In this document: positions 4,834 to 58,840 of the stretch, one piece after another
How positions within the stretch are numbered: the stretch's first letter is position 1
Layout: every line of letters starts with the position of its first letter
Assembly (NCBI GenBank): GCA_963771175.1
Contig: CAVYSY010000021.1
Coordinates: forward strand, 160,001 to 224,000
Reading direction: 5' to 3'
Length of the DNA: 64,000 bases
DNA from: an uncultured delta proteobacterium
GTDB lineage: Bacteria; Myxococcota; Myxococcia; Myxococcales; Myxococcaceae
Notes under the pieces: model-generated
What the model was told of the DNA's origin: nothing
The model's input: the letters and a program-made list of their open reading frames with translations, nothing else
The model's database searches: none
Position numbers and translations under genes: made by a program

Positions 4834-5753
4834 GCGCTTGGTCCCAGAAGGGGAAGAAGTTGAACCAGTCGTAGGGCGAGCGCTCGAGCAGCGCCGTCAC
4901 CCGGCGGGCGTAGTGGCTGGCGTAGCCGCTCAGCGCCGCCTCGCGCCTTCCGCGCGGCAGCTCCACGCGCTCCGTCAGGCACTCGAAGTGGATGGTGTAG
5001 CCCCGCCCCTCGTGGATGCACACCAGCAGGTAGAGGGGGCACTTCAGGAGGGAGGCCAGCACGTAGGGGCCCACCGGAAAGGGCGCGGGATGGCCGAGGA
5101 ACTCCGCCCGCACCATCTGGGTGGAGCCCACCGGAATGCGGTCCCCGGCAATCACCACGAACTCGCCGGCGGAGACGCGCTCGTGCAGCGCGACGGCCGT
5201 GGCCGGGCCGAGCTCGGTGACCTCCATGAGCTGGAACCCGCTGTCGGGGCTCAGCCGCTGCAGCATCGCGGTTGAAACGCTCGGCGTGCCGGGTGTGCAC
5301 GAGGATGGTGAGCTTCACCTCGCCGCGGCGCTCGGCCATCACCCGGCACAGCTCGAGGCAGCCCATGTGGGCGGTCACGATGATGCCGCCCCGCCCCTCC
5401 TTGGCCACCTCGTAGAACTGCTCCCGTCCCTCGGTGCGGACGTGCTCGAAGCGATAGCGGCCGCTGACCGCCAGCAGCTTGTCCAGCATCGTCTCGGCGA
5501 ACGCCGTGACGTGGCGCAGGCTGTCCCTCCAGCCCGGCTCGTGGCCGAGCGCGCCGGTCGCGCTCTGGACGCGGTCCAGGTACTGGAGCGAGGCGGCGCG
5601 GATGGTGGGCGCGGCGAGCCAGTGCAGCGCGACCACCGGAGCCAGGCACAGGCGGAACGGCCAGCGCCCCAGCAGCCGGTGGACCTGGTACAGCAGCCAG
5701 ATTCCGGCCACGAAGGTGCTCTCCCCCATGTCCGCCCAGTGGCGCGTCTTCAT
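4802..5753 (-). CDS. LpxL-like acyltransferase (equivalent to the ApeJ C-terminal half), frameshift near 5270
   Basis: MKTRHWADMGE..., GGIIVTAHMGCLE, VIAGDRIP, C-terminal PYDWFNFFPFW. Confidence 0.82.
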
Positions 5754-39298: not shown

Positions 39299-40650
39299 GG
39301 CTTTACCTCGTCGACGAAGAGGGTGAGTCCCTCCACGCGGCGCACCACCACGCGGACGCCGGAGGGAAGGGGAGTGGAGGAGACGGCGGCCCAGCGCTCG
39401 CCGTGGACGAACACCTCGCCACCGGAGGGCGAGACGGCCTCGAGCACGTGGCCCACCTCGCCCACGAGCCCCGCGTCTCCAGCGAGCTGGGGAATGCGGC
39501 GCGTCTGGGCGGCACGGAAGGCGAGGAAGACGGCGGCCCCGGCGACGAAGAGGGCGGTGGGGAGCACCGTGCCCAGGGGCACGCGCAAGGGCCTGTCGAC
39601 GAACCAGTCCGCATCGAAGCGGTCCACGAGGAACACGCCGCCGAGCACCAGCAGCACCGTGCCCGCGGCGCCGAGCATGCCGCTGGTGACGAAGAGCTCG
39701 GCCACGAGCAGCGCCACGCCGAGCAGCAGCAGGACGATGGCGCCGGTGCGCACGGGCAGCGCCGAGGAGGCGAGCAGGGCGAGCACCAGGCACACCACGC
39801 CGATGATGCCGGGGGCGGACAGACCGGGGTGGCTGAGCTCCACCGCGATGCCGAGGCCCGCGAGGAGGAAGAGGATGTAGACGACGGCTGGCTGGGCGAG
39901 GGCGTGAAGCAACCGCTGGGGAAGGGTGGGCGACAGCTCGACGACCTGGGCGTTGGCGGTGCGCAGCGTGACGGGCGTGTCCGAGACGGTGACGGTGCGG
40001 CCGTTGGCCCATTCGAGGAAGGCTTCCTGGGTGGGCGCGACGTGCTCGATGACGTTCAGCGCGAGGGCCTTCTCGGCGGGGACGCTCTCGCTCTTGCGGA
40101 CGGCGTTGATGGCCCACTCGACGTTGCGGCCGCGCTGCTTGGCGATGGCCTCGACGAAGGCGACGGCGTCGTTCTCGATTTTGCGGGCCATCTCCTTGCC
40201 GCCGGTCTCTTCCGGGTCCTGCCCGGTGAGCCCGACGACGGGGTGGGCGGCGCCGATGTTGGTACCGGGGGCCATGGCGGCGAGATGGGAGGCGAGGGTG
40301 ATGAAGACCCCGGCACTGCCGGCCCGGGCGCCGGAAGGACCCACCCACACCAGCACGGGGATGCGGGCGCCGAGGAAGGCGCGGACGATGTTCCGCGTGG
40401 ACTCGAGCTCTCCGCCGGGAGTGTCGAGCCGGAGGAGGAGCGCCTGATGACCAGCCTCCTGTGCGCGCCGGACGCAGTCGACGAGGTAGGCACTGGAGCC
40501 AGCGTCGACCATGCCGTCGAGGACGCAGCGGGAGATGACGGGAGGAGACGGAGCATCCACACCTCCGGCAGCCTGGCCGAGGAGCAGCATGCCCAGCGCC
40601 AGCGCCACGGTGGCCAACCGTCCGAATCCCCCACGCATCACGAACCCCAT
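39295..40650 (-). CDS. nfeD: NfeD-family membrane-bound serine protease
   Basis: [27 protein letters not shown] block, C-terminal OB fold ([10 protein letters not shown]); paired with slipin. Confidence 0.9.
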
Positions 40651-40716
40651 CTCTGTGAACCGCTCGAACCAGTAGGCACCGGAACCCACCGTGTCGCCGG
40701 CCTGGAGGGCATCCGT

Positions 40717-42015
40717 TCAGTGCCTCACGTCCCACGCGAGCGGGATCTCCCCATCCAACAATGGGGGGGCCACCGGCTTCTCCTCGCTGAGTGCCTCCAG
40801 CAGGCGCAGCTCGTCGAGGAGGAGCCGGGGCATGAGGAAGTGGTGGCGGACGCGCTCCCGGCCGCTCTCGCCGAGTCCATGGGCCACGTCGGGATGGCGC
40901 AGGAGGTGGAGCAGTGCGTCCGCGCACTCCTCGACGCTGTCCACGAGGATGCCGCCGGTGCCTGGGGGTATCTGCATGGGGATTCCCCCGACGCGCCCGG
41001 CGACGACGGGAGTGCCCTTCCAGAGGGCCTCGGAGACGACGAGCCCGAAGCCCTCGCGCAGGGACTTCTGGATGACGACGTCGGAGAGGGACTGGAAGGC
41101 GTTGACCTCGACGTTTCCCACGCCGACGAGGTTGGTGAAGACGTGGATGAGCCGGTCGTCGGCGGTCGCGGCGCGGACCTTCTCGTAGATGTCCCAGGCC
41201 TCGGGGTCGTCAAGGGCCATGGCGCTGACGAGGGCGAGCTGGACGTTGGGCAGGTGCTGGCGCACGAGCCGGTAGGCGGCGACGACGCCGAGCGGGTCCT
41301 TCCACTTGTCGAAGCGACTGACCTGGGTGATGAGGGGGCGGTTGAGCCGGACGCCAATCCACTCGAGGATGTGGCGGGCGAGCTCCTGGGGGAGGACGAG
41401 GTTCTTGGGGCTGAGCGGGTCGATGGCGGGCGGGTGGATGGCGACGCGGCGGATGGGGAAGCGCGGGGGGATGAAGTTCTCCAGGGTGAAGACGGCGGCG
41501 TCGTAGGCGCCGAGGTACGGCGTGAGGAAGTCCCAGATGGCGGGGTTGGGGTGGGACGTGTCGATGTGGCAGCGCCAGATCCACTTGGAGCCGCGCTGGT
41601 GGACGAGCCCGGGGATGGCGGCGGGTTGGGGATCGTGAACGATGATGAAGTCGTAGTCCTCGGCGAGGTGGGGGGCGTTGAGCTGGGCGTTGCCGAGGTA
41701 GAGGGCCTTCTCGGACTCGGAGAGCTCGCCGGGGGCACCCTGCAGCCCGTTGTGGAGGCGCTTGGTGATTTGAAAGAAGGCGTCGTCGCCGCGGATGATC
41801 TTCCACTCGGCCTCCAGCCCGAGGTCCTTGAGGAGCGGGACGCAGGAGCGGAGGATCTCCGAGACGCCACCGCCATAGGAGGTGGCGTTGAGGTGGAGGA
41901 TGCGGGCGCCGCGCAGGCGCTGGGCGACGCGGACAAGCTCGTCGAGCTGCTCTTCGGGAGCGACGCCCCGGTAGGCATCGAGGGATCGGTCACCGATGTC
42001 GACGACGTCGAGCAT
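40717..42015 (-). CDS. GT4 glycosyltransferase, TreT-like trehalose synthase
   Basis: [63 protein letters not shown]. Confidence 0.85.
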
Positions 42016-42232
42016 GAGGGCTCCTTTCCGAGAGGATGCGACTCCAAGGGCAAGGTGACGACGGTGGGGCAGGAGGTGGGGGGAGTCGCTCGGTGGGAGG
42101 GATGGAGGGCATTGGAGAGAGCGCCTCGCCGGGGGGCGTGCATCCGGTGGCGGACGGAGCGGAGCGGGTGCGCGTTGCGGTGGCGGGAGGGGCTCCCTAC
42201 GGTGGGGGGCTCTTTGGACGGAGGAGGTTCCC

Positions 42233-42433
42233 ATGCGCCGTGCCCTGCTCATCGTGGCGGGAGTGCTCGTTGGCTTCCTGGCCTGCCGGACGACCCAGCC
42301 ACCCGGGACGGAGAACCGGGAGCCCCTCGAGGACCCAGGGCAGCGGGAGGAGATTCAGAACGTGCCAGCGGAGCCACCGGGGCCCGCGGGTCCGCTGACG
42401 GAGCCGGACGCCGGAACGCCGCCGAGCGAGTAA
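42233..42433 (+). CDS. Small lipoprotein
   Basis: GGAGGAGG RBS; signal peptide with FLAC lipobox. Confidence 0.6.
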   Translation: MRRALLIVAGVLVGFLACRTTQPPGTENREPLEDPGQREEIQNVPAEPPGPAGPLTEPDAGTPPSE

Positions 42434-42504
42434 TCGCCCCTCCCTTCCCTCCAACACAGTCCCCGTGACAGCCGAGAGCGGCTGGCGCACAGTGGCGCCC
42501 GTCG

Positions 42505-44223
42505 ATGCGGGGACGTTCATCCCAACACCTTCACGGAACACGGGCCCGCGGTGCGGCACGGGCGCTCCTTCTGGGGACGCTTTTGCTGGCGCTGGGGATG
42601 GGGTGTGCCCGGAGGGCGCCCGAGGGAGCGAGAGTGGAGACGACAGTCTACGTGGCACGGCGGATCCGGACGCTGGACGCGGGGAGGCCGGAGGCCGAGG
42701 CGCTGGCGGTGCGCCAGGGCCGGGTGCTGGCGGTGGGGACGAAGGCCGAGGTGCTCGCGGCCGCGGGCGAGGGCGCGCGGGTGGTGGACTTCGGCAACGC
42801 GGTGGTGGTGCCCGGACTGGTGGACGCGCACGCGCACCTCGCGGGACTCGGTCGGAGCCTGACGGTGGCGAGGCTGGAGGGGGCGGGCTCGGTGGACGAG
42901 GTGCTGCGGCGCCTGGCGGATGCTCCGTCGACGAGCTTCCAGGGGGACTGGCTGATCGGAAAGGGGTGGGACCAGAACGGGTGGCCGGGGAAGAGCTTCC
43001 CCGGGCGGGCCGAGCTGGACGCGCGCTTCCCGAGGACGCCGGTGTACCTGACGCGGGTGGACCACCATGCGGCGTGGGTGAATGGCGAGGCGCTGCGGCG
43101 CGCGGGCATCACTCGTGAAACGCCGGACCCGGCGGGAGGCCGCATCCTGAAGGACGCGAAGGGCGAGCCGACGGGCGTGCTGGTGGACAACGCGATGGAC
43201 CTGGTGGCGCGGGTGGTGTCGCCGCCGACGGACGAGCAGTTGGCGGCGCGGCTCTCGGCGGCGCTGGAGCGGTGCGCGCGGGTGGGGCTGACGGGGGTGC
43301 ACGACGCGGGGATGGACCTGCGGACGTTCCGGCTGCTGCAGGCGTGGGACATGGCGGGGCGGCTGCCGGTGCGGGTGTACGCGATGGCGGACGGGCAGGG
43401 GGAGGAGCGGCACACGTACCTGGAGCTGGGGACGTACGGCGGGCGGATGCTGGAGATGAAGGCGGTGAAGTTCCTGCTGGACGGGGCGCTGGGCTCGCGA
43501 GGGGCGGCGCTGCACGAGTCCTACAGCGACGCGCCGGGGGAGACGGGGCTGCTGCTGATGGAGCCGGAGGAGCTGGAGGCGAGGGCGCTGGCCTTCATGC
43601 AGAGGGGCTTCCAGGTGTGCATCCACGCGATTGGAGACCGGGCGAACACGGGGGTGGTGGACACGCTGATTCGAGCGTCGGCGGCGACGGGGACGAAGGC
43701 GCTGCGGCACCGGGTGGAGCACGCCCAGATTTTGCGGCCCGAGGACATCCAGAAGCTGGGGGAGGCGGGGCTGGTGGCGAGCGTGCAGCCGACGCACGCG
43801 ACGAGCGACATGGGGTGGGCGGAGGCGCGACTGGGGGCGGAGCGGCTGAAGGGCGCGTACGCGTGGAGGAGCCTGAAGGAGGCGGGGGCGGTGCTGGCGC
43901 TGGGGAGCGACTTCCCCATCGAGAACCCGGACGTGCTGGCGGGGCTGTACGCGGCGAGGACGCGTCAGGACGCGGCGGGGAAGCCGGAGGGCGGCTGGCA
44001 GCCCCAGGAGCGACTGACGGGGCAGGAGGCGCTGGAGGGCTTCACGGTGGGGCCGGCGTGGGCGTCGTTCGCGGAGGCGCGGCGGGGGCGGCTGGTGGAG
44101 GGGATGGACGCGGACTTCACGGTGCTGTCGGTGGACCCGGTGTCGGACGAGGCGAGGGCCCTGGTGGACGCGACGGTGGTGGCCACGGTGGTGGCGGGCC
44201 GGGAAGTCCACCGGGCCCACTGA
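42505..44223 (+). CDS. YtcJ-like amidohydrolase (amidohydrolase_3); start uncertain
   Basis: PGLVDAHAH, DGALGSRGA, HAIGDRA, HRVEHAQ, GSDFP. Confidence 0.9.
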   Translation: MRGRSSQHLHGTRARGAARALLLGTLLLALGMGCARRAPEGARVETTVYVARRIRTLDAGRPEAEALAVRQGRVLAVGTKAEVLAAAGEGARVVDFGNAVVVPGLVDAHAHLAGLGRSLTVARLEGAGSVDEVLRRLADAPSTSFQGDWLIGKGWDQNGWPGKSFPGRAELDARFPRTPVYLTRVDHHAAWVNGEALRRAGITRETPDPAGGRILKDAKGEPTGVLVDNAMDLVARVVSPPTDEQLAARLSAALERCARVGLTGVHDAGMDLRTFRLLQAWDMAGRLPVRVYAMADGQGEERHTYLELGTYGGRMLEMKAVKFLLDGALGSRGAALHESYSDAPGETGLLLMEPEELEARALAFMQRGFQVCIHAIGDRANTGVVDTLIRASAATGTKALRHRVEHAQILRPEDIQKLGEAGLVASVQPTHATSDMGWAEARLGAERLKGAYAWRSLKEAGAVLALGSDFPIENPDVLAGLYAARTRQDAAGKPEGGWQPQERLTGQEALEGFTVGPAWASFAEARRGRLVEGMDADFTVLSVDPVSDEARALVDATVVATVVAGREVHRAH

Positions 44224-44244
44224 ACCGCCTCTGCTGCGGGTCTG

Positions 44245-45144
44245 CTACCCGAACAGCCGGGAGCGAGCGGTCTCGGCGATGGCCACGACCGCGGGATGCC
44301 GGAGCCGTCGCTCGACGGAGATGGCGTAGAAGCACGTCTCGATGTCGTCGGTGCGCCCGATGACGGAGACGGCGAACTGACGGCAGACCTCGGCCTCGAT
44401 GACGGAGGGGGCGGGGAAGACGCCGTGACCCCGGTGGCCGAAGGCCTTCAGCAGTGCGCTGTCATCGAAGTCGCCGACGATGAGCGGGTGGACGCGCTGG
44501 GCGTCGAACCAGATCTCCAGCGAGCGGCGCATGGAGGAGGCCTCGGAGGGGAGGAGGACGGGGGCGCCATCGAGCGAACGGGGGAAACCCCGGCTGAGGT
44601 GAGCCAGCTTGGGAGCGGCGAAGAAGGAGACGCCGCACTTGCCGAGCAGGTGATTGAAGGCGCGGATGCTGACGGGCTCGGAGGAGGGGGCGTCGGCGAG
44701 GACGACGTCGAGCTCGTGGAGGGCGAGGGAGGCGAGGAGCTGGGGGAGGGGGCCTTCGCGGCAGGTGATGCGGATGTCGGGGGAGGTGTCGAAGGCGGGC
44801 TGGAGGAGGCGCTCGGCGACGAGCTTGGGGATGACGTCGGTGACGCCGACGGCGAGGCGGAGCTGCTGGCCGGAGGAGGGGAGGCCGCTGACGACGTTCT
44901 TCAGCTCGTTGCCGAGGCGGAAGATGTCCTCGGCGTAGCGGAGGACGGTGCGGCCGACGTCGGTGAGGACGAGGCGGCGGCCCTGTCGCTCGAAGAGCTT
45001 GTGGCCGAGCGACTCCTCGAGGAGCTTGAGCTGGGCGCTGATGGTGGGCTGGGCGAGGTGGAGTTCCTGGCTGGCCTTGGCGATGGAGCCGGCGCGGGCG
45101 ACGGTCCAGAAGTAGAGGAGGTGGTGGTAGTTGAGCCAGCTCAC
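44245..45144 (-). CDS. nhaR: LysR-family regulator, NhaR-like
   Basis: WLNYHHLLYFWTVARAGSI, FDDSALLKAFG, YAISVERRLRHPAV. Confidence 0.88.
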   Translation of the reverse strand: MSWLNYHHLLYFWTVARAGSIAKASQELHLAQPTISAQLKLLEESLGHKLFERQGRRLVLTDVGRTVLRYAEDIFRLGNELKNVVSGLPSSGQQLRLAVGVTDVIPKLVAERLLQPAFDTSPDIRITCREGPLPQLLASLALHELDVVLADAPSSEPVSIRAFNHLLGKCGVSFFAAPKLAHLSRGFPRSLDGAPVLLPSEASSMRRSLEIWFDAQRVHPLIVGDFDDSALLKAFGHRGHGVFPAPSVIEAEVCRQFAVSVIGRTDDIETCFYAISVERRLRHPAVVAIAETARSRLFG

Positions 45145-45280
45145 GCGAGGGACTCCGGGAAGGCGACCAGGGATGTAACGGAAACGTACGGGTGGTGCGT
45201 GCCGGAAGGGCAGGAGGGCAGCCGGGCGTGCGGGTGGAGAGGAGGAAGGGGAGGAAGTGGAGTGGAGTTGAAGAAGCAAC

Positions 45281-45309
45281 TTGACGCGAGGGCCGAGTCC
45301 CCGTAAATC
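45281..45309 (+). promoter_or_regulatory. Probable tRNA promoter
   Basis: TTGACG-N17-TAAATC about 35 nt upstream of the tRNA. Confidence 0.5.
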
Positions 45310-45343
45310 GCCGTTACTTCGAGCGGTTGAGCAACGCAGAAAC

Positions 45344-45416
45344 GCCCAGGTAGCTCAGTCGGTAGAGCAGGGGACTGAAAATCCCCGTGTCGGTGGTTCG
45401 ATTCCGCCCCTGGGCA
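45344..45416 (+). tRNA. tRNA-Phe (GAA), CCA not encoded
   Basis: Cloverleaf GCCCAGG/CCTGGGC acceptor stem, D-arm TAGCTCAGTCGGTAGAGC, anticodon loop CTGAAAA, T-loop GTTCGATTC. Confidence 0.97.
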
Positions 45417-45442
45417 CTTCCCAAAGAGTTCGCAGCAAGCCG

Positions 45443-45478
45443 AGGCCGATACGCATCCCGTATCGGCCTTTTGCTTTT
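45443..45478 (+). terminator. Intrinsic terminator after tRNA-Phe
   Basis: 11-bp stem AGGCCGATACG/CGTATCGGCCT followed by TTTGCTTTT. Confidence 0.8.
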
Positions 45479-45495
45479 GGCTGCTGGCCTTGACC

Positions 45496-48400
45496 TCAGC
45501 GCTCCATCGCACGCAGGAGGCACAGGGCCCAATTGGTATCAATCCACCGGGTCGAGCCCTTCGGCGTTCCTTCCAGGTAGCGGAGTCGGTTCACCCGCGC
45601 CTCATCCAAGATGCTCCCCGTGCTGCGCGCGTCGTCGCGAGCGAGGAGCGCCCAAGCGACGTCGGTCAGGGAGACCGTTCGTTCCTCGAAGCCACCTTCG
45701 CCGCCATCAATGCGCACGCCTCCTTCGGAAGCGATGCCTACGATGCGACAGCGCTTGCCGTCCTCCTCGATGGTGCGGCCAATGGGATGGGTGCTCAGCA
45801 GGTTCTTGACCTGCTCCGAGGCTCGTTCGAGCGCTCCCTCGGGAAGTCTGCGGGAGCTTCGACGTCCGTGCCCGAGTGCTCGCCAGGTGGCGTAATCCAC
45901 CGGCTCTGAGAGTGCCCAGCGGTCCTCTTCCTCCAGCCAGCGCGCCACGCCGTCATACCTCCAGGGCTCCTCTGGCGAGAGCCGGGTCAGCACGAAGGCC
46001 GTTTCCGCCGGGCGGCGATCCTCGATGCGCAGCTTCAGGCAATCGGGCTCGGTGAGGAGTCCCTTCTCGGTCACGCAGAGGAAGAGGTGGCCCGTGTGGC
46101 GCCCGGTCCTTGGCGGTGCGGTGAGTCCAAAGGCCTTGATGACGTCCTCCTCCGTCATTCGCTCGCCCACGGCGGGTCCTAGTCGTTCAGGCTGAATCAC
46201 CTCCACGAGCTGTGCGATGGGGACCACGTCCTCAGTCGTCTCGAAGGACGGCCGCGACGGATTGTCGGAGCGCAGAATCCATCGGCCCTTCTCTCGCACG
46301 ACCCGCTTCACCTGGTACCCGTAGCCGGCCGAGTCCGGCACCTGCACGAGCGCCACCTTTCCCTCGACCACTCCGATGCCGGCTGCTCGCGCGTAACGCA
46401 TCACGAGCCAATCCCCATCCCGAATCGGACGCTCGCCTCCATCCATGGAGTCGCCGGACGCACGTACCGCGAACAGTCCCGCGTCACTTGCCTGGACTGG
46501 CAGGCTCACCCGCTCCGCTTCGGGCGCGCCCTCTAGCGCGATCGTGTGGGTTGCCGCACCCGCCGCGGCACGCAGGCTCGGGAAGGCCACGAGGGTTCCC
46601 CGGCGGGGCAGGGGAATGACTTCCGCATCCACGGGAGCTACCCACCACCCATCCGGGCCTGGTGTGAAGCGCACCCGGAAGGCCGTGCCCGGTTTGCCAG
46701 CTCCAGGACCGAACCAACGCCGCATCAGATCTGGCAGGGCATTGCGGTCCGTTCCCACCGGCCGGGCCACGTTGCAGAACTCCTTCATCAACCGGAAGCG
46801 CCAGGCGACTGCCATCCGGGAGTCGCACATCCAGCTCACCCCGAGGCAGGTCTGGCCTCTTGAGCCGATCTGGCAACTTGAGGATGGGGTCGCGCTTGTT
46901 CGAGAGGACCTTGGTTTCGAAGGCCGCACCTGGAGCTTCCGTGCGTTGCCCGAGCGCGGTATTGCGCGAGGCGGTAGTCCACCAGCTCCCGGGTGAGCTC
47001 CAGGAATGCCTCTTGCGCGTCCTCCGGAATCGGCAGGCGCGGAGATGAAGCGGTCTCCGTCCACGCGGAACCACGGGCTTCCCGTCCACGCCTGGATCGG
47101 GTTTTCCTTCCAGTAGGCGAGAAAGCGTTTCGGCTTCGGGTTGCGTCGTAGTCTCCCAGTGCCTTGACTCCCTCCAGGTCCCTCAGCAGCTCCGGAGAAC
47201 GGCGCAGGAGGGCGAGGCTGCGCTCGGCCAGCTCCGGGAGTGACAGTCCTTCTTCCCAGCCCCGGCTTCGAGCAGCGCCTCCAGAAGGACCATCTTGAAG
47301 CTCTTGCTCATCTGCGTGGTCTCGAGCTCCTCGAACCATGCGGCTCCCGCCTCCTGCGCATGGGTCTCCTTCGCTGTCAGGTCTCCTTCGCGCTGCACGA
47401 ACCGCAGCCAGCCTCCGTGTGCCTCGCGCAGTGTCGCCGGGCGGTAACCCAGCCGGTACATCTCGCCCGCAGTGGGTCGCCGTCCCCAGGCCTCCCGCAG
47501 CTCGCGGTACACCCGCTCCACCTCGCTGCGCTCCGCTCGGCAGCAGCTTCGCCAGCAGGTTCTTCGCCTCCAGCTCCACCTGCATCGAGCAGCCCGGTGG
47601 CAGCTCGGGCTCCATGCCCTCCACGAGGAAGTCTCGCAGCGACAGTTGCTCGCTCCTGTCCGTCAGTGCCAGCAGCGCGCGCACGCGGTCCAGGAACACC
47701 CGGTGGTTGCCCACGAAGTCGATGACCGTGACAGCCGCCTTCGTCTCGGCTTTGCGCAGCCCGCGCCCGAGCTGCTGCAGGAACACCACCGGCGACTCCG
47801 TGGGACGCAGCATCACCACCCGGTCCACGCTCGGGACGTCCACGCCCTCGTTGAAGAGGTCCACCGCGCAGACCGCGTCCAGCTCGCCGCTCGCCAGCTT
47901 CCTCAGTGCCTCGGCCCGGTCATCCGTTCCGGGGGCCGAGTGAACCGCGACCACCCGGACACCCTGGGCCTTCAGCCAGCCCTCTCACGTACTCCGCGTG
48001 CGCCACCGAGCAGCAGAAGACCAGCGTGCGCGTCGCGCGATGCGCCTCCCACGCCGTCCACATCCGCTGCATGCGCGCTTCCGTCTGCACCGCCTCCGCG
48101 AGCCTCTCCGGGTCGAAGCGCCGGTTGCGCCAGGGGATGTTCTCGTACGCCACGTCGTCCTTCAGCCCGTGGTACGCGAACGGCACCAGCAGCCCGCGCG
48201 CGATGCCCTCGCCCACGTCCGCCCGGTAGGCGAGGTGGTCGTCGAACAGGCCCAGCACGTCGCCCTCGTCCGCGCGCTCCGGCGTCGCCGTCAGCCCGAG
48301 CAGGAACGCGGGTTTCAGGCGCCCCAGGATGGCCCGGTAGCTCGCCGCCGCGGCGTGATGCACCTCGTCCACCACCACGTAGTCGAAGGGCGCCACCTCC

Positions 48401-49752
48401 CGGAGGCTGGCGAGCGCTCTCGGGTCGCGACAGCTTCTGCACCGAGGCGAAGACCACGTCTCCGGCGAGGCTCGACCGCTCCGCGACGAACCAGCCGAAG
48501 CGCGATTCGGGGAACTGCCGCCGGAACGTCTCCGCCGCCTGGGTCAGCAGCTCCGCCCGGTGTGCGAGGAACAGCACCCGCGCTCGTCGGCCCAGCGTCT
48601 GCTCGAAGGCCTCCACGTCGAGTGCCGCCAGCAGCGTCTTTCCCAGACCCGTCGCCAGCACCACCAGGGCTCGCTGGCGCCCCTCGTCCCGGCTGCGTGC
48701 CAGTGCCGCGAGCGCCTCCCGCTGAACCTCGTGCGGCTGGCGCGGCGGCTCGCACGGGCTCCGCTTCCGCCTCCCCGGACGGCAGGGGACGGGCCACCTG
48801 TCGCGCTCGGGCTTCGTATCGCTCGACCCAGGCCGCGTCGAAGCGTCAGGGCCCTCGTCCACCAGCCCTCGAAGGCGTCCACCACGTCCTGGTACGCCGC
48901 GTGGGTCGCTGTCTCGCTCGACGCGCAGGTTCCACTCCACGCCCGTCCGCAGCGCCGCGTGCGACACGTTGCTCGAACCGACGAAGGCCGCCGCCAGCCC
49001 CACTCCCTCGAAGCGCCAGGACTTCGGGTGGAAGGAGCGTCCCAGCCTCTCCGTTTCCACCACGCGCGCCTCGAAGGTTCCCCGAGAGGCTCGGGGTTGC
49101 TCCTCGTCCTCCTCGCGCCGGGCTTCGCTCTCATCCATCCAGTCGAGCAGCCGCCTCAGCGCCGCCGCCTGGGTGATGGCCAGGTAGTCCCCGGTGAGGA
49201 TGCGCACCCGCGCGCCTCGGGCCAGCGCCGCCTCCACCGATTCGCGCAGCACCTCGAGCCCGCTGTCCTGCACGAAGGCCGCCAGCACCGCCACGTCCGG
49301 GGCCCGCGCGAACAGGGGCTCCAGGTGCCGCAGGAATGGGTCCTCCAGGCCTCCCGTGGCCAGCGGTTTCGCCGAGGTCGCGAGGTAGTTGCCCTTCCCT
49401 GGAATCACGTGACGTACGCCGCCCCGCGGGTCCGCCATGTCTCCTCGGAAGCGCGGGAATCACGTGCACGTGCAGGTGGAACACCGTCTGTCCCGCCGCC
49501 TCGCCCACGTTGAAGCCGACGTTGTACCCGTCCGGCCGGTGGCTCTCGTCCAGCCCGCGTTTCACCTGCGTCCACCAGCTCGAAGAGGGCCCGCTGCTCC
49601 TCCGGCGTGGCCTCGAACCATGTGGCCACCGGTCGGCGCGGAATCACCAGGGTGTGCCCCGGGCTCACCGGGTAGCGGTCGCGGATGGCGAAGGCCAGCG
49701 CGTTGGATGCTACCCACTCGGACTCGGGTACCTTCAGGAAGGGGGAACTCAC
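45496..49752 (-). CDS. Multidomain HIT - PLD nuclease - SF2 (DEAD/DEAH) helicase - S24 peptidase protein, putative anti-phage; many apparent frameshifts
   Basis: HIT: DRYPVSPGHTLVIP...GQTVFHLHVHVIP. PLD: FHPKSW...FVGSSN...EWN. Helicase: LATGLGKT, DEVHH, GLTATPER, DLFNEGVDVP, QQLGRGLR. S24: VRASGDSMD...QVKR. Confidence 0.8.
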
Positions 49753-50028
49753 GCGCGCACCGTACCCCACGCGGCTCGTCCTTCAGAGCCACCGCAGCAG
49801 GTCTCTTCATGATGTGGCGGAGGTCTTGCGTGGCTCGCTTTCCCCGCCGGAGCGGCCCGTCTACCCTGCCCGAGCAATTCATCTTGGGAGGTGGGGCCCT
49901 CAAGACCTTCCTCGAGAAGCTGGACGGCGTCGTCTACTGACGAGACCTGCGCGGTCTGTACGACGGCGGACGTCGACTCGCGGAGGTGACTTTCCAAGTC
50001 ACACCCCGGGATGCATCCTCCGGTCGTC

Positions 50029-50503
50029 ATGAGTACCTACCAATATTACGAGTTCCAGGCCGTGGACCGGGCGCTCACTCCCGCCGAGCAGGACGCGCTG
50101 CGCAAGCTGTCCACCCGTGCGGACATCACCTCGTCCCGCTTCGTCAACGTCTACAACTATGGGGACTTCAAGGGCGACCCGGACCGCTTGATGGAGCGGT
50201 ACTTCGATATCTTCGTCTACATGGCCAAAGGACGCGCTCCTCCTGCGCGTCATGCAGGGCCCGGAGCCCCTGCTGGCGGCGGAGCTGCTTCGCCGCTTCC
50301 AGGAGGCCCGACCCCGTGAGCGGGGCGCCCAGGCCGCCGACGCCCGGCGCACGGTGGGGGAGCTCCGGGCCGAGGCCGAGGTGCTCGAGGCCGAGCGCTC
50401 GCGGCGTCAGTCGAAGAAGGAGGCACGGGCGCGGGCCCGCGAGCTCGAGGCGCTCGCGGCGCGTGAAGGAGAGGCCTGGCTCGAGGTCCTCGGGACGGTC
50501 TGA
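50029..50503 (+). pseudogene. Internally truncated conserved hypothetical protein
   Basis: Protein-like N-terminus MSTYQYYEFQAVDRALT...YNYGDFKGDP breaks near 50230 and resumes in another frame (RRTVGELRAEAE...EAWLEV). Confidence 0.55.
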
Positions 50504-50666
50504 CGGAATCCACGCTCAGTGTGAGCGGGTAGACCCTCGTCCCCGTGCCGGCCGGGTTGCTTCGTGACATCGGACGTGGTGGGACGGCCTCCTTCCGGTA
50601 CATTGCACCCGCCAGGGTCCCCACCCCTGGAGCATCGAGGCAGGAAGTACGAGGCAGGGGAGTACC

Positions 50667-52316
50667 ATGAAGCCACTGGTGGAAGAGACGGACGTGCTCA
50701 TCGTCGGCTGCGGCCCGGTGGGTGCGCTCACAGCCAACCTCCTGGGTCTGTACGGGGTTCGCACGCTCGTCCTCGAGCGAGAACTCACCCAGCACAGCCA
50801 GCCTCGCGCCATCACCTGTGACGACGAGGCCATGCGCATCTACCAGGCCGTGGGTCTCGCCGACGTCCTCGAACCCCACATGTACACCGCCCCCGAGGTG
50901 GAGTTCACCGGCACCACCGGCGAGCTCTTCGCCCGCATCACCGTCCAGGGGCTCGACTTCGGCTACGGCTTCCCCGTCCTCCGCTTCTTCAGCCAGCCCT
51001 ACCTCGAGACCGTGCTGCGCCAGGGGCTCTCTCGCTTCCCCCACGTCGAGCTGCGGCTCGGCCAGCACGTCGAGGCCTACACCCAGGACGCCCAGGGCAT
51101 CTCCGTCACCGTCCGCGATGTCCGCGACAACAGCGAGCGCACCGTGCGCGCCCGCTATGTCCTGGCCTGCGACGGTGGTCGCAGCATCCTGCGCCAGCTC
51201 GCCGGAATCGAAATGGTGGGCGCCACCTACGACGAGGGAATGATTGCCATCTCCCTCCGCCTTCCCGAGCCGCCTCCGCCCCTGTGCCGCATGGTGTGCG
51301 ACCCCTTCCGCCACATCTTCGTCGCCCGCTGCGCCGACAACGAGATGCGCATCGAGTGCATGATTCGCGAGGACGAGAAGCCCGAGGACCTGCTCCGGCC
51401 CGAGTGCCTCCGTGAGTTCATCTCCCCCTACGTGGATCCGGACCGCGCCACCATCCTCCGCGCCGCCGCCTACATCTTCAACCGCCGCCTGGCCTCGCGC
51501 TGGCGCGACGGGCGGCTCTTCCTCCTTGGCGACGCCGCCCACCTCATGCCGCCCGTCCTGGGCCAGGGGCTCTGCTCCGGCCTGCGCGATGCCCACAACC
51601 TCGCCTGGAAGCTGGCGGCCGTCCTTCGCGGCCAGGCCGACGAGCCGCTCCTCGACACCTATGAGCTGGAGCGCCGCCCCCACGCCCAGGCGATGCTCGA
51701 CGCCAGCGTGAACATGGGCCGCATCGTCCTCACTGGCGTCCGCCCGATCGCCGTCCTGCGCGACCACCTCATCCGGGCGATCGACCGCATCCCGCGCGTG
51801 CATCGCTTCATCCAGAACTTCGAGTTCAAGCCCCGGCCTCTCATCGCCCGCGGTTTCATGTTGGGGGGCTCCCGCGGCCACCGCCAGGCTCCCGAGGGGA
51901 CGTACTTCCCCCAGCCTCGCGTGGGCGCGCCGGGCGGCGGCGTGGTGCGGCTCGATGAGCTCCTGGGTCCCGGCTTCGCGGTGCTCGTCCACCCCCACAC
52001 CCGCGAGGTCTCCCTCCGCGCCGCCCAGGCGCTCGCCGAGAGCCTCGGTGCCCGCTGCCTGCGCATCATCCCGCCGCGCTCCGGTCAGGCCCATCCCGGC
52101 GAGGTGGTGGATCTCGAGGGCAAGCTCGACGCGTGGTTCCGCGAGCACCGGGTGGAGATCGCCGTCCTCCGTCCGGACCGCTACCTCTTCGGCGCGGTGC
52201 GGGGCTCGCACCTCGCCTGGCTCGCCGCGGCACTGCGGGGGTGGATCCACTCGCCCCTCCGTCTGGAGGCGACCGACTTCGAGTCCGGTGGTGCGTTCAG
52301 CTCCCCGGCGGTCTGA
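50667..52316 (+). CDS. FAD-dependent aromatic monooxygenase (MhpA-like)
   Basis: GCGPVG, ACDGGRS, LLGDAAHLMPP.LGQG, RDAHNLAWKL, LRPDRY. Confidence 0.9.
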   Translation: MKPLVEETDVLIVGCGPVGALTANLLGLYGVRTLVLERELTQHSQPRAITCDDEAMRIYQAVGLADVLEPHMYTAPEVEFTGTTGELFARITVQGLDFGYGFPVLRFFSQPYLETVLRQGLSRFPHVELRLGQHVEAYTQDAQGISVTVRDVRDNSERTVRARYVLACDGGRSILRQLAGIEMVGATYDEGMIAISLRLPEPPPPLCRMVCDPFRHIFVARCADNEMRIECMIREDEKPEDLLRPECLREFISPYVDPDRATILRAAAYIFNRRLASRWRDGRLFLLGDAAHLMPPVLGQGLCSGLRDAHNLAWKLAAVLRGQADEPLLDTYELERRPHAQAMLDASVNMGRIVLTGVRPIAVLRDHLIRAIDRIPRVHRFIQNFEFKPRPLIARGFMLGGSRGHRQAPEGTYFPQPRVGAPGGGVVRLDELLGPGFAVLVHPHTREVSLRAAQALAESLGARCLRIIPPRSGQAHPGEVVDLEGKLDAWFREHRVEIAVLRPDRYLFGAVRGSHLAWLAAALRGWIHSPLRLEATDFESGGAFSSPAV

Positions 52317-52391: not shown

Positions 52392-53798
52392 ATGCTCAGA
52401 CAGAAGTTGCTCGTCACGGGATTGGTGCTGCTGGCGGGGACGGCCGCGTGTGCCCAGGGTCGGTCCGCGCGGGCCGAGACGGCCATCGCCACCGCCGCGT
52501 CCAAGCCCGGCGCGGACGTGCGGACGAAGACGCTGAAGAACGGCTTGAAGGTCATCGTCTGGCCGGACCACGGACATCCCCAACGTCGCGCTCTACAACT
52601 GGTTCCGCGTGGGCAGCCGCAACGAGCGCCCCGGCATCACCGGGCTCTCCCACTTCTTCGAGCACATGATGTTCAACGGCGCGAAGAAGTACGGCCCCGG
52701 GCGAGTTCGACCGCGTGCATGGAGGCCGCACGGCGGCCGCAACAACGCCTACACCACCGAGGACGTCACCGTGTACCAGGACTGGTTCCCGCGCTCGGCG
52801 CTGGAGACCGTCTTCGACCTGGAGGCGGACCGCATCGGCCACCTCGCCATCGACCCCAAGGTCGTGGAGAGCGAGCGCGGCGTCGTCTACTCGGAGCGCC
52901 GCTCCACCGTGGACAACGACAACACGCGGCCTGCTCATGGAGCAGGTGCAGGCCACCGCCTTCGTCGCGCACCCCTACCAGATTCCCGGTCATCGGCTGG
53001 CCCAGCGACATCGAGCGCTGGACGCAGGAGGACCTCGAGAGCGCTACTTCCGCACCTACTACGCGCCCAACAACGCCACGCTCATCGTGGCGGGCGCCGT
53101 GACGCCCGAGGAGATCTTCGCGCTCGCGGAGAAGTACCTCGAGCCCATCCCCGCGCAGCCCGCCGCCCGAGCCGGTGCGCACCGTGGAGCCGCCGCAGCA
53201 GGGCGAGCGCCGCGTCGTGGTGCGCAAGGCGGCGCAGGCGCCGCTGCTGCAGATGGCCTTCCACGGCCTCAAGGCGCAGTGACGTGGACGCCGACGCGCT
53301 CGACCTGCTGGTGCGCATCCTCACGGACGGAGACTCCTCTCGCCTGCACCGCGCGGCTGGTGGAGGAGACGCAGGTGGCCATCAGCGTGCGCGGCGTACC
53401 TGGACGCGGGCTTCGACCCCTCGCTCACCTGGATGCTGGTGGACCTGCCGCCCGGGGGCGACCTGGGCAAGGCGGAGTCGCTGCTCGACGAGGAGCTGGC
53501 GAAGGTGGTGTCCAGGAGGGCGTCACCGACGCGGAGCTGCGCAAGGCGAAGAACATCGTCGTGGCGGACTTCTGGCGCCACCTGGAGACCAACAGCGGCC
53601 GCGCGCAGGCGCTGGGCACCTACGAGGTGTTCCACGGCGACTGGACAGAAGCTCTTCGACGCCCCCGCCCGCTACGAGGCGGTGACGCGCGAGCAGGTGC
53701 AGAAGGTGGCCGCGAGGTGTTCTCGCGCGAACAACCGCACGGTGGGCGTGCTGGTGCCCGAGGCTGGCGACGAGGCGAAGAAGGAGGCGGCGCGATGA
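52392..53798 (+). CDS. M16 zinc protease, catalytic subunit; multiple frameshifts
   Basis: [28 protein letters not shown] (HxxEH), NAYTTED. Confidence 0.85.
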
Positions 53799-56543: not shown

Positions 56544-56620
56544 AGCCCCTTGATCGCCGGGTAGTTGGTGTGTCAAGAAACTCGCCTCTTCTTCAGAGGA
56601 GTATTGAATTGGCTAATCGC

Positions 56621-58840
56621 ATGTTCAGGACTCTGTGTGTGGCGTGGCTGGGCGCGAGCCTCGCCGCCTGCGGCTCGACGGTCGAGGTGAATGAGGAGGC
56701 CGTCCGCGCGGGTGAGAAGGACGTGGACATCCAGGCCGCCCTGGCGAAGTTCAAGGACGCGCGCGTGGTGGGTAGCGAGGCCGGCGTGCCCTACATGGTG
56801 ACGGGCAAGCTGGGCCGGCTGCCGGCGCTGAGCACCGTGAGCGAGCTGCGCGCGAAGGACGAGCTGCGCACGACGGCGGCGAGCATCTCGCCGGTGTTCC
56901 GGGTGAGCGGCGAGGAGGTGACGTTCAAGCGCGCCTCGACGGACTCGCGTGGCCACCAGTTCATGCGCTTCCAGCAGGTGCTCAACGGCCGGGAGGTGGT
57001 TGGCGGCGAGCTGCTGCTGCATGCGGACGCCGAGGGCAACGTGTACGCGGCCAACAGCTCGCTGCGCGAGGTTCAGGGCGCGGCCTCCCAGGCGCGGGTG
57101 GCGGCCGAGGCGGCGCAGCGCGCGGCCGTGGACGGCTCCGAGGCCCTCCGCGCCGAGGCGCAGGGCGCGGCCCGGCTGGTCTACGTCAAGCCCGACGGCC
57201 AGCAGCTTCGGCTGGCCTATGAGGTGCGCGTGACGGGCGAGCGCGCCGACGGTCTGCCGGTGGATGACCTGGTCTACGTCAGCGCCGACGACGGGCGGAC
57301 GCTGGCCACGCACTCGCGCATCCACACCGCGCAGAACCGGGCGGTGTACTCGGCCAACAACGGCACCAGCCTGCCGGGCACGCTCAAGCGCAGCGAGGGT
57401 GGCGCGGCCACCGGTGACACCCATGTGGACGACAACTACAACCACCTGGGCACCACCTACCAGTGCTACTCCGTGAACTTCGGCCGCGACTCCTACAACA
57501 ACGCGGGCGCGCAGCTGAAGAGCACGGTCCACTACAGCAGCAACTACGTCAACGCCTTCTGGAACGGCACCCAGATGGTGTACGGCGACGGCGATGGCGT
57601 GCAGTCCTCGCCGCTGGGCAAGTCGCTGGACGTGACGGTGCACGAGCTCACCCACGCGGTGACCAGCTCCGAGTCCAACCTCACCTACTCCAACGAGTCC
57701 GGCGCGCTCAACGAGGGCATGAGCGACATCTTCTCCGCCTACTGCGAGGCGTGGACGAAGGGCTGGGTCACCGACGCGGCGGTGTACATGATCGGCGACG
57801 ACATCTGGACGCCGGCCACCCCGGGTGACGCCCTGCGCTACATGGGCAACCCGACGCAGGACGGCTCGTCGAAGGACTACTACCCCGAGCGCTACACGGG
57901 CGCCTCCGACAACGGCGGCGTGCACTGGAACTCGGGCATCGCCAACCTGGCCTTCAAGCTGCTGAGCGAGGGTGGCACCCACCCGCGCTCCAAGACGACC
58001 ACCGTCGTGCCGGCCATCGGCATCCAGAAGGCGGGGAAGATTTTCTACGAGGCCAACGCCAACTGCATGACCTCGTCCTCGAACTTCGCGGCGGCGAAGA
58101 CCTGCACCGAGCAGAAGGCGCAGGCGTTCTACGGCGCGGCGGAGCTGGACGCGGTGACGAAGGCCTGGGAGGCCGTGGGCGTGGGCGTGGCCGTTCCGCC
58201 GCCGACCACCACCCCGCTGAGCAACGGCGTCGCGAAGACCGGCCTCGCCGGCTCCGCGGGCGCCAACGCGTACTACACGCTGCAGGTGCCGGCGGGTCAG
58301 GCCAGCCTGACGTTCGACATCACCGGTGGCACGGGTGACGCGGACATGTACGTGAAGTTCGGCTCGGCGCCGGACTCGGCCACCTACGACTGCCGCCCGT
58401 ACAAGAGTGGCAACGTGGAGAACTGCACCTTCACCAACCCGGCCGCGGGCACCTGGTACGTGATGCTCAACGCCTACTCGACCTACTCGGGCGTCTCCCT
58501 GACGGGCCTCTACAGCGGTGGCGGCACGGGTGGCGGCACTCCGACGACCGAGACGGCCAGCGGCAGCGTGGCCTCGGGCGCCACCGTCAACTACGGCGCG
58601 TACAGCGTGGTGGCTGGCACCCAGTTCAAGGTGGTGATGACGGGCTCGGGCGACCCGGACCTGTACGTCCGCTTCGGCGCGGCCCCCACCACCACCACCT
58701 ACAACTGCCGTCCGTACCTCTCGGGCGCCTCCGAGACGTGCGACCTGACGGTGCCCGCCGGCCAGAGCAGCGCGTACATCATGGTGCGCGGCTACACCGC
58801 GGCCACCTACAACCTGGCCATCAACTACACCAAGCCGTAG
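56621..58840 (+). CDS. M4 (thermolysin-like) metalloprotease with FTP/PepSY propeptide and two PPC domains
   Basis: NAFWNG, HELTH, GALNEGMSD, DNGGVHWNSG, GDADMYV and GDPDLYV PPC motifs. Confidence 0.94.
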   Translation: MFRTLCVAWLGASLAACGSTVEVNEEAVRAGEKDVDIQAALAKFKDARVVGSEAGVPYMVTGKLGRLPALSTVSELRAKDELRTTAASISPVFRVSGEEVTFKRASTDSRGHQFMRFQQVLNGREVVGGELLLHADAEGNVYAANSSLREVQGAASQARVAAEAAQRAAVDGSEALRAEAQGAARLVYVKPDGQQLRLAYEVRVTGERADGLPVDDLVYVSADDGRTLATHSRIHTAQNRAVYSANNGTSLPGTLKRSEGGAATGDTHVDDNYNHLGTTYQCYSVNFGRDSYNNAGAQLKSTVHYSSNYVNAFWNGTQMVYGDGDGVQSSPLGKSLDVTVHELTHAVTSSESNLTYSNESGALNEGMSDIFSAYCEAWTKGWVTDAAVYMIGDDIWTPATPGDALRYMGNPTQDGSSKDYYPERYTGASDNGGVHWNSGIANLAFKLLSEGGTHPRSKTTTVVPAIGIQKAGKIFYEANANCMTSSSNFAAAKTCTEQKAQAFYGAAELDAVTKAWEAVGVGVAVPPPTTTPLSNGVAKTGLAGSAGANAYYTLQVPAGQASLTFDITGGTGDADMYVKFGSAPDSATYDCRPYKSGNVENCTFTNPAAGTWYVMLNAYSTYSGVSLTGLYSGGGTGGGTPTTETASGSVASGATVNYGAYSVVAGTQFKVVMTGSGDPDLYVRFGAAPTTTTYNCRPYLSGASETCDLTVPAGQSSAYIMVRGYTAATYNLAINYTKP

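Follow-up and report, generated by a model that had tools for sequence, protein, structure and literature searches.

Self-cleavage by S24 peptidases is the textbook example of a switch, in the SOS response as well as in prophage induction. In LexA, lambda CI and UmuD (MEROPS S24), the cleavage site, serine and lysine are A84-G85, S119 and K156 (E. coli LexA), A111-G112, S149 and K192 (lambda CI) and C24-G25, S60 and K97 (UmuD), and the C-domains of LexA and CI also dimerise. To our knowledge, such self-cleavage is known only in repressors and in UmuD-like polymerase subunits, and among the well-studied S24 proteins only IrvR does without RecA. A literature search of papers open without subscription brought up no description of a restriction enzyme or helicase with a fused S24 domain.

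[quoted passage not shown] According to the available parts of PMC7913695 and bioRxiv 10.1101/2025.10.16.682607, SauUSI combines a PLD nuclease, an SF2 ATPase and a helical coupler in one chain, and the former source describes it as functioning as a dimer. Here we describe a gene, in a stretch of 64,000 nucleotides (hereafter the window), whose intact relatives join a SauUSI-like body and an S24 domain in a single polypeptide.

A SauUSI-like fusion gene and its reading frame

The gene occupies 45496..49770 on the minus strand, as do all of its parts described below, with a start at about GTG 49770 and a stop codon at 45496-45498, as delimited by tblastn, blastn and a three-frame reading. Amino acids 1-1424 of its intact Archangium relative L003 (1425 codons) were matched over 49782..45502 in three frames by tblastn, and the two genes share 86.6% nucleotide identity with 17 gap openings (blastn). 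The domain order in intact relatives is HIT, PLD nuclease, SF2 ATPase, SauUSI-like coupler, a stretch of ~215 residues, S24 and one or two C-terminal domains. The HIT (histidine triad) domain of the window, with its HLHVHVIP motif (49447..49722), was mapped from the Pfam PF01230 match on L003 (aa 21-113, E 7.5e-23); single-base insertions, one at 49568 and one at 49455, interrupt it, and the motif is readable in frame 2. It is followed by a PLD-family (HxK) nuclease domain (48859..49246; FHPKSW...GSSNVS), identified by Pfam PLDc_2 and by a profile alignment to 7clg from residue 15, and by an SF2 helicase-like ATPase with ATGLGKT and DEVHH motifs that extends over three frames (47756..48740; Pfam ResIII and Helicase_C) and whose counterpart in L003 (aa 249-694) aligns with SauUSI at E 5e-73. 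A coupler-like region, placed by aligning the family profile A3 with 7clg, and the ~215 residues behind it, ending ...KEFCNVARPVG...WFGPGAGKPGT..., fill 46600..47755. These ~215 residues occupy the place of the SauUSI target-recognition domain; they had no match in Pfam or NCBIfam, and the ESM Atlas gave nothing usable for them.

Searched against the PDB, profile A3 matched residues 15-720 of the 953 of SauUSI (E 1.5e-127), and L003 matched the PADLOC model mREase_IV (PDLC03659, E 2.8e-90). Judged by these sequence comparisons, the fusion is a SauUSI-like PLD (HxK) nuclease, SF2 ATPase and coupler in one chain, an assignment that implies no particular class of substrate. A previous sequence-only reading of the locus had spoken of a nuclease-helicase: both nuclease and ATPase are present, but that description was too narrow for a body comprising HIT, PLD, SF2 ATPase, coupler and ~215 further residues. 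Like SauUSI, the fusion is without a conserved methyltransferase or other partner gene, and our search for conserved neighbours found only synteny within Cystobacterineae (at most eight loci, including the window) and paralogous Ser/Thr kinases. Unlike SauUSI, it has an additional N-terminal HIT domain, S24 and two C-terminal domains (CTD1 and CTD2) are appended to it, and no DUF3427/SRA recognition domain is detectable at the SauUSI position, the alignment stopping at residue 720.

The copy in the window does not contain an intact reading frame. Compared with L003, L002 and L004, it carries ~13 single-base insertions and one two-base insertion, giving ~13 frame breaks from 49568 to 46806, upstream of S24, and spreading the nuclease-helicase part over three different frames. 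The earlier placement of the S24 motifs inside a helicase fusion is accordingly correct for the relatives, in which S24 is part of an uninterrupted frame of about 1280-1450 codons (of 37 related loci, 31 carry the match in a single open frame that is 1150 codons or longer), but not for the window as given. Taken at face value, these breaks would make the gene a dead pseudogene in this genome, with no switch and at most the last 522-codon frame (47064-45496) expressed, a reading to which we attach very little weight. The differences from the relatives are nearly all insertions, at the same positions against all three; a second patch, of 11 single-base insertions (53396-52570), breaks the neighbouring M16 peptidase gene; and the stretches 39500-46800 and 50500-52300 are free of such insertions, all of which fits sequence error better than decay. 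Mismatches to L003 also concentrate at the third codon position even in the broken part (6.8%, 5.2% and 23.1% at positions 1, 2 and 3), as they do in the unbroken part (10.6%, 6.9% and 30.5%), the mark of purifying selection throughout. Given this bias, and the same defect in the neighbouring gene, the frame breaks are probably a local error of the sequence. Plus-strand ORFs over the region (e.g. 46212-46619 and 46445-46996) were set aside as by-products of a G+C content of ~68%; homologues and third-position bias both belong to the minus-strand frame.

The S24 domain and its predicted catalytic residues

The motifs on which the sequence-only reading was built all exist, encoded on the minus strand: SLRAAAG within AFPSLRAAAG, which starts at 46587, GDSMD from 46455, followed by PIRDGDWLV, and YQVKRV from 46317. 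They fall in a peptidase S24 (LexA/CI/UmuD-type) domain that, with its cleavage-site strand, spans residues 64-198 (46195..46599) of a 430-aa query (window:45499-46788(-)) used for residue numbering throughout. Pfam Peptidase_S24 (PF00717) matched the domain at E 7e-8, its score of 32.7 bits exceeding the curated cut-off of 23.3. In an AlphaFold (AF2) model of the query (mean pLDDT 88.8, pTM 0.80), the S24 domain has pLDDT values of mostly 86-97, and the best PDB matches of the model by Foldseek are the C-domain of lambda CI together with the fragment that bears its cleavage site (2hnf, E 2.5e-6), RecA-bound CI, LexA and UmuD'; the hits to lambda CI, LexA and UmuD' range from E 2.5e-6 to 3e-3 with probability 1.00. 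NCBIfam gave a weak UmuD-subfamily match on this region (E 0.014, far below its cut-off) and otherwise generic helicase matches, and PADLOC matched nothing in the S24 and C-terminal part.

The predicted scissile bond, Ala76-Gly77 (codons 46563-46561 and 46560-46558), lies in AAAG (46558..46569), and residues L72-A78 fall in a short helix of the AF2 model, a point that counts against cleavage there. Ser114, the predicted nucleophile (46447..46449, in SGDSM), follows Gly77 by 37 residues, and Lys161, the predicted general base (46306..46308, in VKRV), follows Ser114 by 47. This spacing, together with the match to the CI cleavage-site fragment, predicts that Ala76-Gly77 is structurally equivalent to the LexA site. 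The motif set is not a chance occurrence; this is a genuine S24 domain, with Ala-Gly, Ser and Lys in canonical order, and the LexA/CI/UmuD-like order and spacing noted in the sequence-only reading are borne out by the Pfam match, the fold and the Gly-Ser distance.

The fusion family shares with LexA, lambda CI and UmuD the fold, the Pfam family, a serine in GxSM, a lysine in KR and an Ala-Gly pair (Cys-Gly in one relative) ~37 residues before the serine, and in all of them the cut, predicted in the fusion, would part the S24 core from a functional N-terminal portion. In contrast, the N-terminal partner in the fusion is a HIT-nuclease-ATPase of ~1065 residues instead of an HTH domain or an arm of 24 residues, the S24 core has two extra domains behind it, and the Ser-to-Lys spacing is 47. 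Domain scans matched no HTH in the part before the cleavage site, and the fusion protein is therefore not classed as a LexA/CI-type repressor.

The sequence-only reading had made its proposal dependent on conservation of the Ala-Gly pair, the serine and the lysine among homologues. Across the window and 120 large homologues (the best 120 of 170, among the matches listed), whose S24 domains are 53-86% identical to that of the window, A75, A76, G77, S114 and K161 are invariant in 121/121 sequences. On this point the proposal withstands its own test, and the predicted catalytic features are evidently under strict selection. Within a more mixed set of 55 members (A1), counted over rows with a residue at the column, A76 is kept in 48/49, G77 in 46/49, S114 in 49/51 and K161 in 53/55, and 52 of the 55 match Pfam Peptidase_S24. 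In a distant relative, P0139, Ala-Gly is replaced by Cys-Gly, which is also a canonical site of S24 proteins, and in P0081 the cleavage site, GDSM and KR have all decayed and S24 is no longer detected by Pfam.

This pattern bears on whether the domain cleaves at all. Dimerisation is a known function of the S24 fold, dimeric LexA, CI and UmuD' structures are among the Foldseek matches, and a domain that never cleaves could act purely as a scaffold joining the C-terminal modules of two protomers; SauUSI, too, acts as a dimer according to PMC7913695. A scaffold would have no need for a nucleophile, a base or an Ala-Gly pair, yet these are invariant while 120 of the 138 columns of the domain vary (18 are invariant). 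The exchange of Ala-Gly for Cys-Gly in P0139 retains a cleavable dipeptide, and where constraint has been lost, in P0081, all three features have gone together. We thus regard a purely structural role as distinctly unlikely.

C-terminal domains and the S24 cassette

The Ala-Gly bond is followed by 354 residues, in good agreement with the roughly 350 estimated in the sequence-only reading. Beyond the S24 core, CTD1 (residues ~205-305; 45874..46176) is modelled as a small beta-barrel with a helix (pLDDT 95) and carries the motifs GHLFL, ETAFVL and WRYxGVARW. Its Foldseek matches are weak: the UHRF1 SRA domain at E 0.09, with TagI and ScoMcrA also matched, and SauUSI 7clg_A at E 0.15 (prob 0.97, 132 columns, rmsd 4.7). 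In two relatives (P0142 and P0148), Pfam DUF3427 follows S24 at the position of CTD1. The modelled fold hints that CTD1 may be an SRA/PUA-like reader, a reading kept tentative because the C-terminal domains could not be linked by sequence to DUF3427 or SauUSI: hhalign of profile A2 against P0142 gave a probability of 0.3%, and Pfam found no DUF3427 in the 10 full-length relatives scanned or in any of the 55 A1 members. The sole PDB match of profile A2, a P450, was judged spurious, leaving no sequence link to the SauUSI recognition domain, and an ESM Atlas look-up for the C-terminal domains gave nothing usable. CTD2 (residues ~306-430; 45499..45873) is modelled as a helix, a small beta-sheet and further helices, ends in RYLEGTPKxSTRWIDT, matched no known domain, and is missing in forms of ~1285-1300 codons (L007, L008, L009, L012-L014 and L018).

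Among the 37 representative hits with a length of 700 aa or more, eight align on both sides of S24 but not across it; the missing stretch is essentially S24 alone in seven of them, the eighth (P0053) also being without part of CTD1. The S24 domain hence behaves as a discrete cassette of ~150 residues. Together with CTD1, it also occurs on XRE-type HTH proteins (L034, L035, P0120, P0132 and P0099), repressors of ~325-390 residues that share the S24-CTD1 cassette with the fusion and keep VAAG, Ser and Lys, but which have an N-terminal HTH and neither the enzyme part nor CTD2. Neighbours of one of them (L034, HTH-S24-CTD1) encode a histidine kinase, Nudix, methyltransferase and FIST proteins and were uninformative.

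S24 and CTD1 travel as a unit onto these five HTH proteins, so the trigger need not be RecA, and CTD1 might itself control cleavage. The S24 domain would then self-cleave in response to a CTD1/CTD2 sensor (of modified DNA, a nucleotide or another ligand), or constitutively as a maturation step after folding. CI-like repressors respond to RecA without any such extra domain, and the pTM of 0.80 for a 430-residue multi-domain model suggests that the domains pack together. Nevertheless, all eight hits without S24 keep C-terminal domains (CTD1-CTD2 in seven, the distal part only in P0053), which argues that those domains are not mere accessories of S24; P0139 and P0065 appear to stop directly after S24, with no CTD, although these records could be truncated; and every well-studied S24 protein that we know of, IrvR excepted, uses RecA. 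IrvR itself provides a precedent, reported in PMC7101444 as a RecA-independent LexA-like protein. We consider a trigger other than RecA unlikely on balance, if clearly less so than a scaffold that never cleaves.

A proposed severable hinge and its possible direction

We favour, with slightly better than even confidence, the interpretation that the S24 domain is a catalytically competent autoprotease and gives a SauUSI-related nuclease-translocase, made as one polypeptide, a hinge that can be severed; the protein would cut itself under stimulation by RecA-ssDNA, by analogy with its known relatives. The Ser114/Lys161 dyad would cut the protein's own Ala76-Gly77 bond, freeing the catalytic body of ~1065 residues from a 354-residue fragment comprising the S24 core, CTD1 and CTD2. 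Cleavage would be latent and, as in LexA, lambda CI and UmuD, would be stimulated when RecA-ssDNA filaments form, either following DNA damage or on ssDNA of a phage or plasmid; the dependence on RecA is inferred from likeness to these three proteins. Whether the nuclease-translocase is in this way wired at the protein level to the SOS response, with RecA filaments triggering the self-cut and toggling immunity within minutes without transcription, is a more tentative proposition, possible but short of an even chance. On the negative side, an SOS-box motif for M. xanthus LexA was not matched anywhere from the start of the gene to its next neighbour, and its 14 matches in the whole window compare with 18.6 expected by chance; the best of them (56612-56629) lies inside a metalloprotease gene and was dropped.

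The direction of such a switch is the weakest step. On one reading, severing the hinge would separate the body and a C-terminal module for association or DNA reading, turning the enzyme off or retargeting it as a form of built-in restriction alleviation. Since relatives without S24 keep CTD1-CTD2 permanently attached, the enzyme presumably works with these domains in place, and we lean, by a narrow margin, towards an off or retargeting fuse over the removal of an inhibitor. However, ~215 residues stand in the place of the SauUSI recognition domain, and what is released may therefore be an enzyme with nothing missing, in which case activation is favoured as much as inactivation. A functional analogy for the off reading, with no homology implied, is type I restriction alleviation, in which proteolysis of a helicase-nuclease subunit, the HsdR of EcoKI, by ClpXP protects the host when its own DNA becomes a target (PMC4231737 and PMC11109961). 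In that system the protease is a separate one and attacks stalled complexes, whereas in the fusion the protease would be built in, make one cut and answer to another signal.

If the protein cleaves, it would represent a new post-translational control of a dangerous nuclease, arming or disarming it, and a compact, self-contained proteolytic switch acting on a large enzyme. If the more tentative wiring to the SOS signal holds, an S24 'fuse', otherwise seen in repressors and a polymerase subunit, would for the first time have been met in an enzyme, and the S24-CTD1 cassette would be a portable cleavage module plugged by evolution into repressors and effectors alike. M. xanthus, which is genetically tractable and has an intact orthologue (the P0182-type protein), lends itself to a direct test of the hypothesis.

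The S24 part of the window was matched by 170 clusters of 783-2494 aa, and among the 120 matches listed nearly all combine HIT, ResIII, Helicase_C and S24. The family thus comprises at least 170 protein clusters. Besides Myxococcota it is present in a small number of further soil lineages, and it has members in Myxococcus, Archangium, Sorangium, Polyangium and Anaeromyxobacter as well as in some uncultured lineages.

S24 domain and its predicted self-cleavage motifs

The window is ~68–70% G+C, and long spurious open reading frames consequently occur in every frame. The motifs quoted in the sequence-only reading were nonetheless present on the minus strand, inside the open stretch 47307..45499. 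Numbered on the 430-aa query (45499–46788, minus), AFPSLRAAAG starts at 46587 and contains the predicted scissile bond Ala76-Gly77 (codons 46563–46558); GDSMD starts at 46455 and carries the predicted nucleophile Ser114 (46449–46447), and YQVKRV starts at 46317 and carries Lys161 (46308–46306), the predicted base of the dyad. The order of Ala-Gly, Ser and Lys was as that reading had described it, with 37 residues from Gly77 to Ser114 and 47 from Ser114 to Lys161, and its C-terminal part of about 350 residues measured 354 downstream of the Ala-Gly bond. Pfam matched Peptidase_S24 within the query, at 46195–46599 (minus), with 32.7 bits against a curated cut-off of 23.3 (E 7e-8). An AlphaFold model of the query, based on a 55-sequence alignment, reached a mean pLDDT of 88.8 and a pTM of 0.80; its leading PDB matches were the lambda CI C-terminal domain, also as a hyper-cleavable fragment with the cleavage-site region (2hnf, E 2.5e-6), RecA-bound CI, LexA of several species and UmuD'. 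We thereby confirm that the S24-type motif set is real and not a product of chance, and by all features checked computationally the domain is a member of family S24. The protein bearing it has no HTH, ruling out a LexA/CI-type repressor as its identity. Full-text searches of the openly accessible literature turned up no description of a restriction enzyme or helicase that contains an S24 domain.

Family architecture and the reading frame of the window copy

A related-locus search with the query recovered 37 loci (L-numbers), mainly from Myxococcota (Archangium at ≤85% identity, Vitiosangium, Pyxidicoccus, Myxococcus, Cystobacter, Sorangium and Polyangium) and including two MAGs labelled Holophagales. 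The suggestion that the motifs lie inside a helicase fusion holds for intact relatives (31 of the 37 loci carry the match in one uninterrupted frame of 1150 codons or more), but not for the window copy as it stands, which is frame-broken. Contig ends interrupt L027 and L033, L026 and L037 are also frame-broken, and L034 and L035 have a distinct short architecture. In Pfam terms, intact relatives run from HIT through a PLD nuclease to a ResIII/Helicase_C SF2 ATPase and then, past ~360 residues to which Pfam assigns no family, to Peptidase_S24 and the C-terminal part. In a protein database search, 170 clusters of 783–2494 residues matched the S24 part; nearly all of the 120 listed combined HIT, ResIII, Helicase_C and S24, under names that were just 'DEAD/DEAH box helicase family protein' or COG-style strings. 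Neighbour comparison across the related loci found no conserved partner gene beyond Cystobacterineae synteny; the enzyme looks self-contained.

Relative to L003 (an intact Archangium relative of 1425 codons), L002 and L004, the window has ~13 insertions of one base and one of two bases between 49568 and 46806. These split the gene across three frames; none was found from 46806 to the stop codon. The gene could on this evidence be dead in this genome. However, the adjacent M16 peptidase gene (53396–52570) is disrupted by another patch, of 11 such single-base insertions, stretches between and beside the two patches are clean, and mismatches to L003 concentrate at third codon positions in the broken part (6.8%, 5.2% and 23.1% at positions 1, 2 and 3) as in the unbroken part (10.6%, 6.9% and 30.5%). 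The frame breaks therefore look like locally poor sequence rather than gene decay. Insertions within the patches (46806–49568 and 52570–53396, the latter probably extending to ~53700) occur about once per 100–250 bases relative to the three related genomes.

The HIT (histidine-triad nucleotide hydrolase/transferase) domain (49447–49722, minus; residues 21–113 of L003) stands at the N-terminus in nearly all family members and is weakly akin to the HIT protein ThsC (PADLOC, E ~2e-8). A small ORF (50030–50567, plus; MSTYQYYEFQAV...) lies between the S24-enzyme gene and an FAD-monooxygenase gene and partly aligns to L003 (50487–49957, 88% nucleotide identity). Anaeromyxobacter sp. Fw109-5 carries two family copies on one chromosome (database relatives P0231 and P0251), and the frame of L024, from a Polyangiaceae MAG, continues ~150–180 codons past the usual C-terminus (~4600–5036, plus), giving 1603 codons from stop to stop.

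Conservation of the predicted cleavage site and relationship to SauUSI

Conservation of the Ala-Gly site and dyad, the check proposed with the original suggestion, was complete when the S24 domains of the 120 large homologues listed were excised and set in an alignment with that of the window: A75, A76, G77, S114 and K161 were invariant in 121/121 sequences, among only 18 invariant columns of 138, at 53%–86% domain identity to the window. In a mixed 55-row alignment that included fragments and short forms, counted over rows with a residue at the column, conservation was 48/49 for A76, 46/49 for G77, 49/51 for S114 and 53/55 for K161, with exceptions in P0012, P0045, P0058 and P0062. P0139, a distant relative of low G+C, carries Cys-Gly at the site, the second canonical S24 dipeptide besides Ala-Gly; in P0081 the site, GxSM and KR have decayed jointly and Pfam detects no S24. 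Among the 37 representative hits with a length of 700 residues or more, the match skips S24 into the C-terminal part in eight (P0037, P0061, P0067, P0103, P0106, P0015, P0051 and P0053), landing on the first downstream domain, CTD1, in seven; P0053 additionally lacks part of CTD1. Because these long relatives skip it, S24 behaves as a discrete cassette of ~150 residues. The invariant Ser, Lys and Ala-Gly site speak against a purely structural role for S24. The overall pattern is what would be expected if both the protease and its substrate site are functional, and is hard to explain by a mere scaffold.

Of the solved structures, that of SauUSI (7clg), a type IV restriction enzyme, is nearest in sequence. 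A single family sequence matched it at E 5e-73 across nuclease and ATPase, and a 42-sequence family profile over SauUSI residues 15–720 of 953 (E 1.5e-127), a span that comprises nuclease, ATPase and helical coupler as set out in PMC7913695. PADLOC mREase_IV matched L003 at E 2.8e-90 (profile positions 46–617 of 945). The family enzyme shares these three modules but differs in its additional HIT domain, its S24-CTD tail and the lack of a demonstrable SRA/DUF3427 domain at SauUSI's position; the alignment ends ahead of SauUSI's SRA-type recognition domain, whose place is occupied by ~215 residues without family assignment, directly before S24. Downstream of S24 lie two domains, CTD1 and CTD2, the second of which received no assignment. 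Modelled separately (pLDDT 95), CTD1 is a small beta-barrel whose fold matches, though weak, share a theme: the SRA domains of UHRF1 and UHRF2 (E from 0.09), SauUSI (E 0.15, probability 0.97, 132 columns, rmsd 4.7 Å), TagI and ScoMcrA. P0142 and P0148 carry Pfam DUF3427 directly after S24; sequence-profile tests found no link between CTD1 and DUF3427. Given these weak matches and that null result, CTD1 as a 'reader domain' is a lead, not a result.

CTD2 is present in a class of ~1405–1450 codons (L001–L006) and absent from one of ~1285–1305 codons (L007, L008, L009, L012, L013, L014 and L018) found in Myxococcus, Cystobacter and some Pyxidicoccus and Archangium; Archangium violaceum has both lengths (P0155, 1410 aa; P0211, 1299 aa).

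A putative self-cleaving switch

Homologue comparison places a canonical S24 domain, its dyad and scissile dipeptide under strict selection, in the polypeptide chain of a SauUSI-like nuclease-translocase. As a sequence-level case for a working hinge that cleaves itself, this is unusually clean. The dyad is predicted to cut the Ala76-Gly77 bond, either in cis or as part of a dimer, which would yield a catalytic body of ~1065 residues and an S24-CTD1-CTD2 fragment of 354 residues. Self-cleavage of LexA, CI and UmuD is latent and stimulated by RecA-ssDNA filaments; by analogy, the cut here may be latent and respond to the same filaments. Alternatively, cleavage could proceed without RecA, either constitutively or licensed by CTD1/CTD2 as a sensor, as might be suggested by the occurrence of the S24-CTD1 cassette on XRE-type HTH proteins (L034, L035, P0120, P0132 and P0099) and by IrvR, a LexA-like protein described as RecA-independent (PMC7101444).

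The state with CTD1-CTD2 attached is presumably the working one, since S24-less relatives keep these domains permanently joined, and for that reason we lean slightly towards a fuse that disconnects a C-terminal association/reader module over the removal of an inhibitor. Disconnection would silence or retarget the enzyme upon damage to the cell's own DNA; this would be a built-in counterpart of the ClpXP-mediated alleviation of EcoKI restriction (PMC4231737 and PMC11109961). The opposite direction, in which the cut removes an inhibitor, is also reasonable: ~215 residues before S24 sit at the place of the SauUSI recognition domain, and the P0139 and P0065 records appear to stop directly after S24.

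The HTH-S24-CTD1 proteins (~325–390 residues; L034 5629–6756 and L035 5536–6705, both plus) share the enzyme's CTD1 and keep VAAG, Ser and Lys; S24 and CTD1 together look like a cassette that can be carried from one protein to another. Neighbours of the L034 gene (hybrid histidine kinase, Nudix, methyltransferase and FIST) gave no functional clue. Matches across the window to a Myxococcus SOS-box motif were no more than expected by chance; one near-palindrome with two mismatches to it (56612–56629) falls within a thermolysin-like metalloprotease ORF (56570–58840), close to its start.
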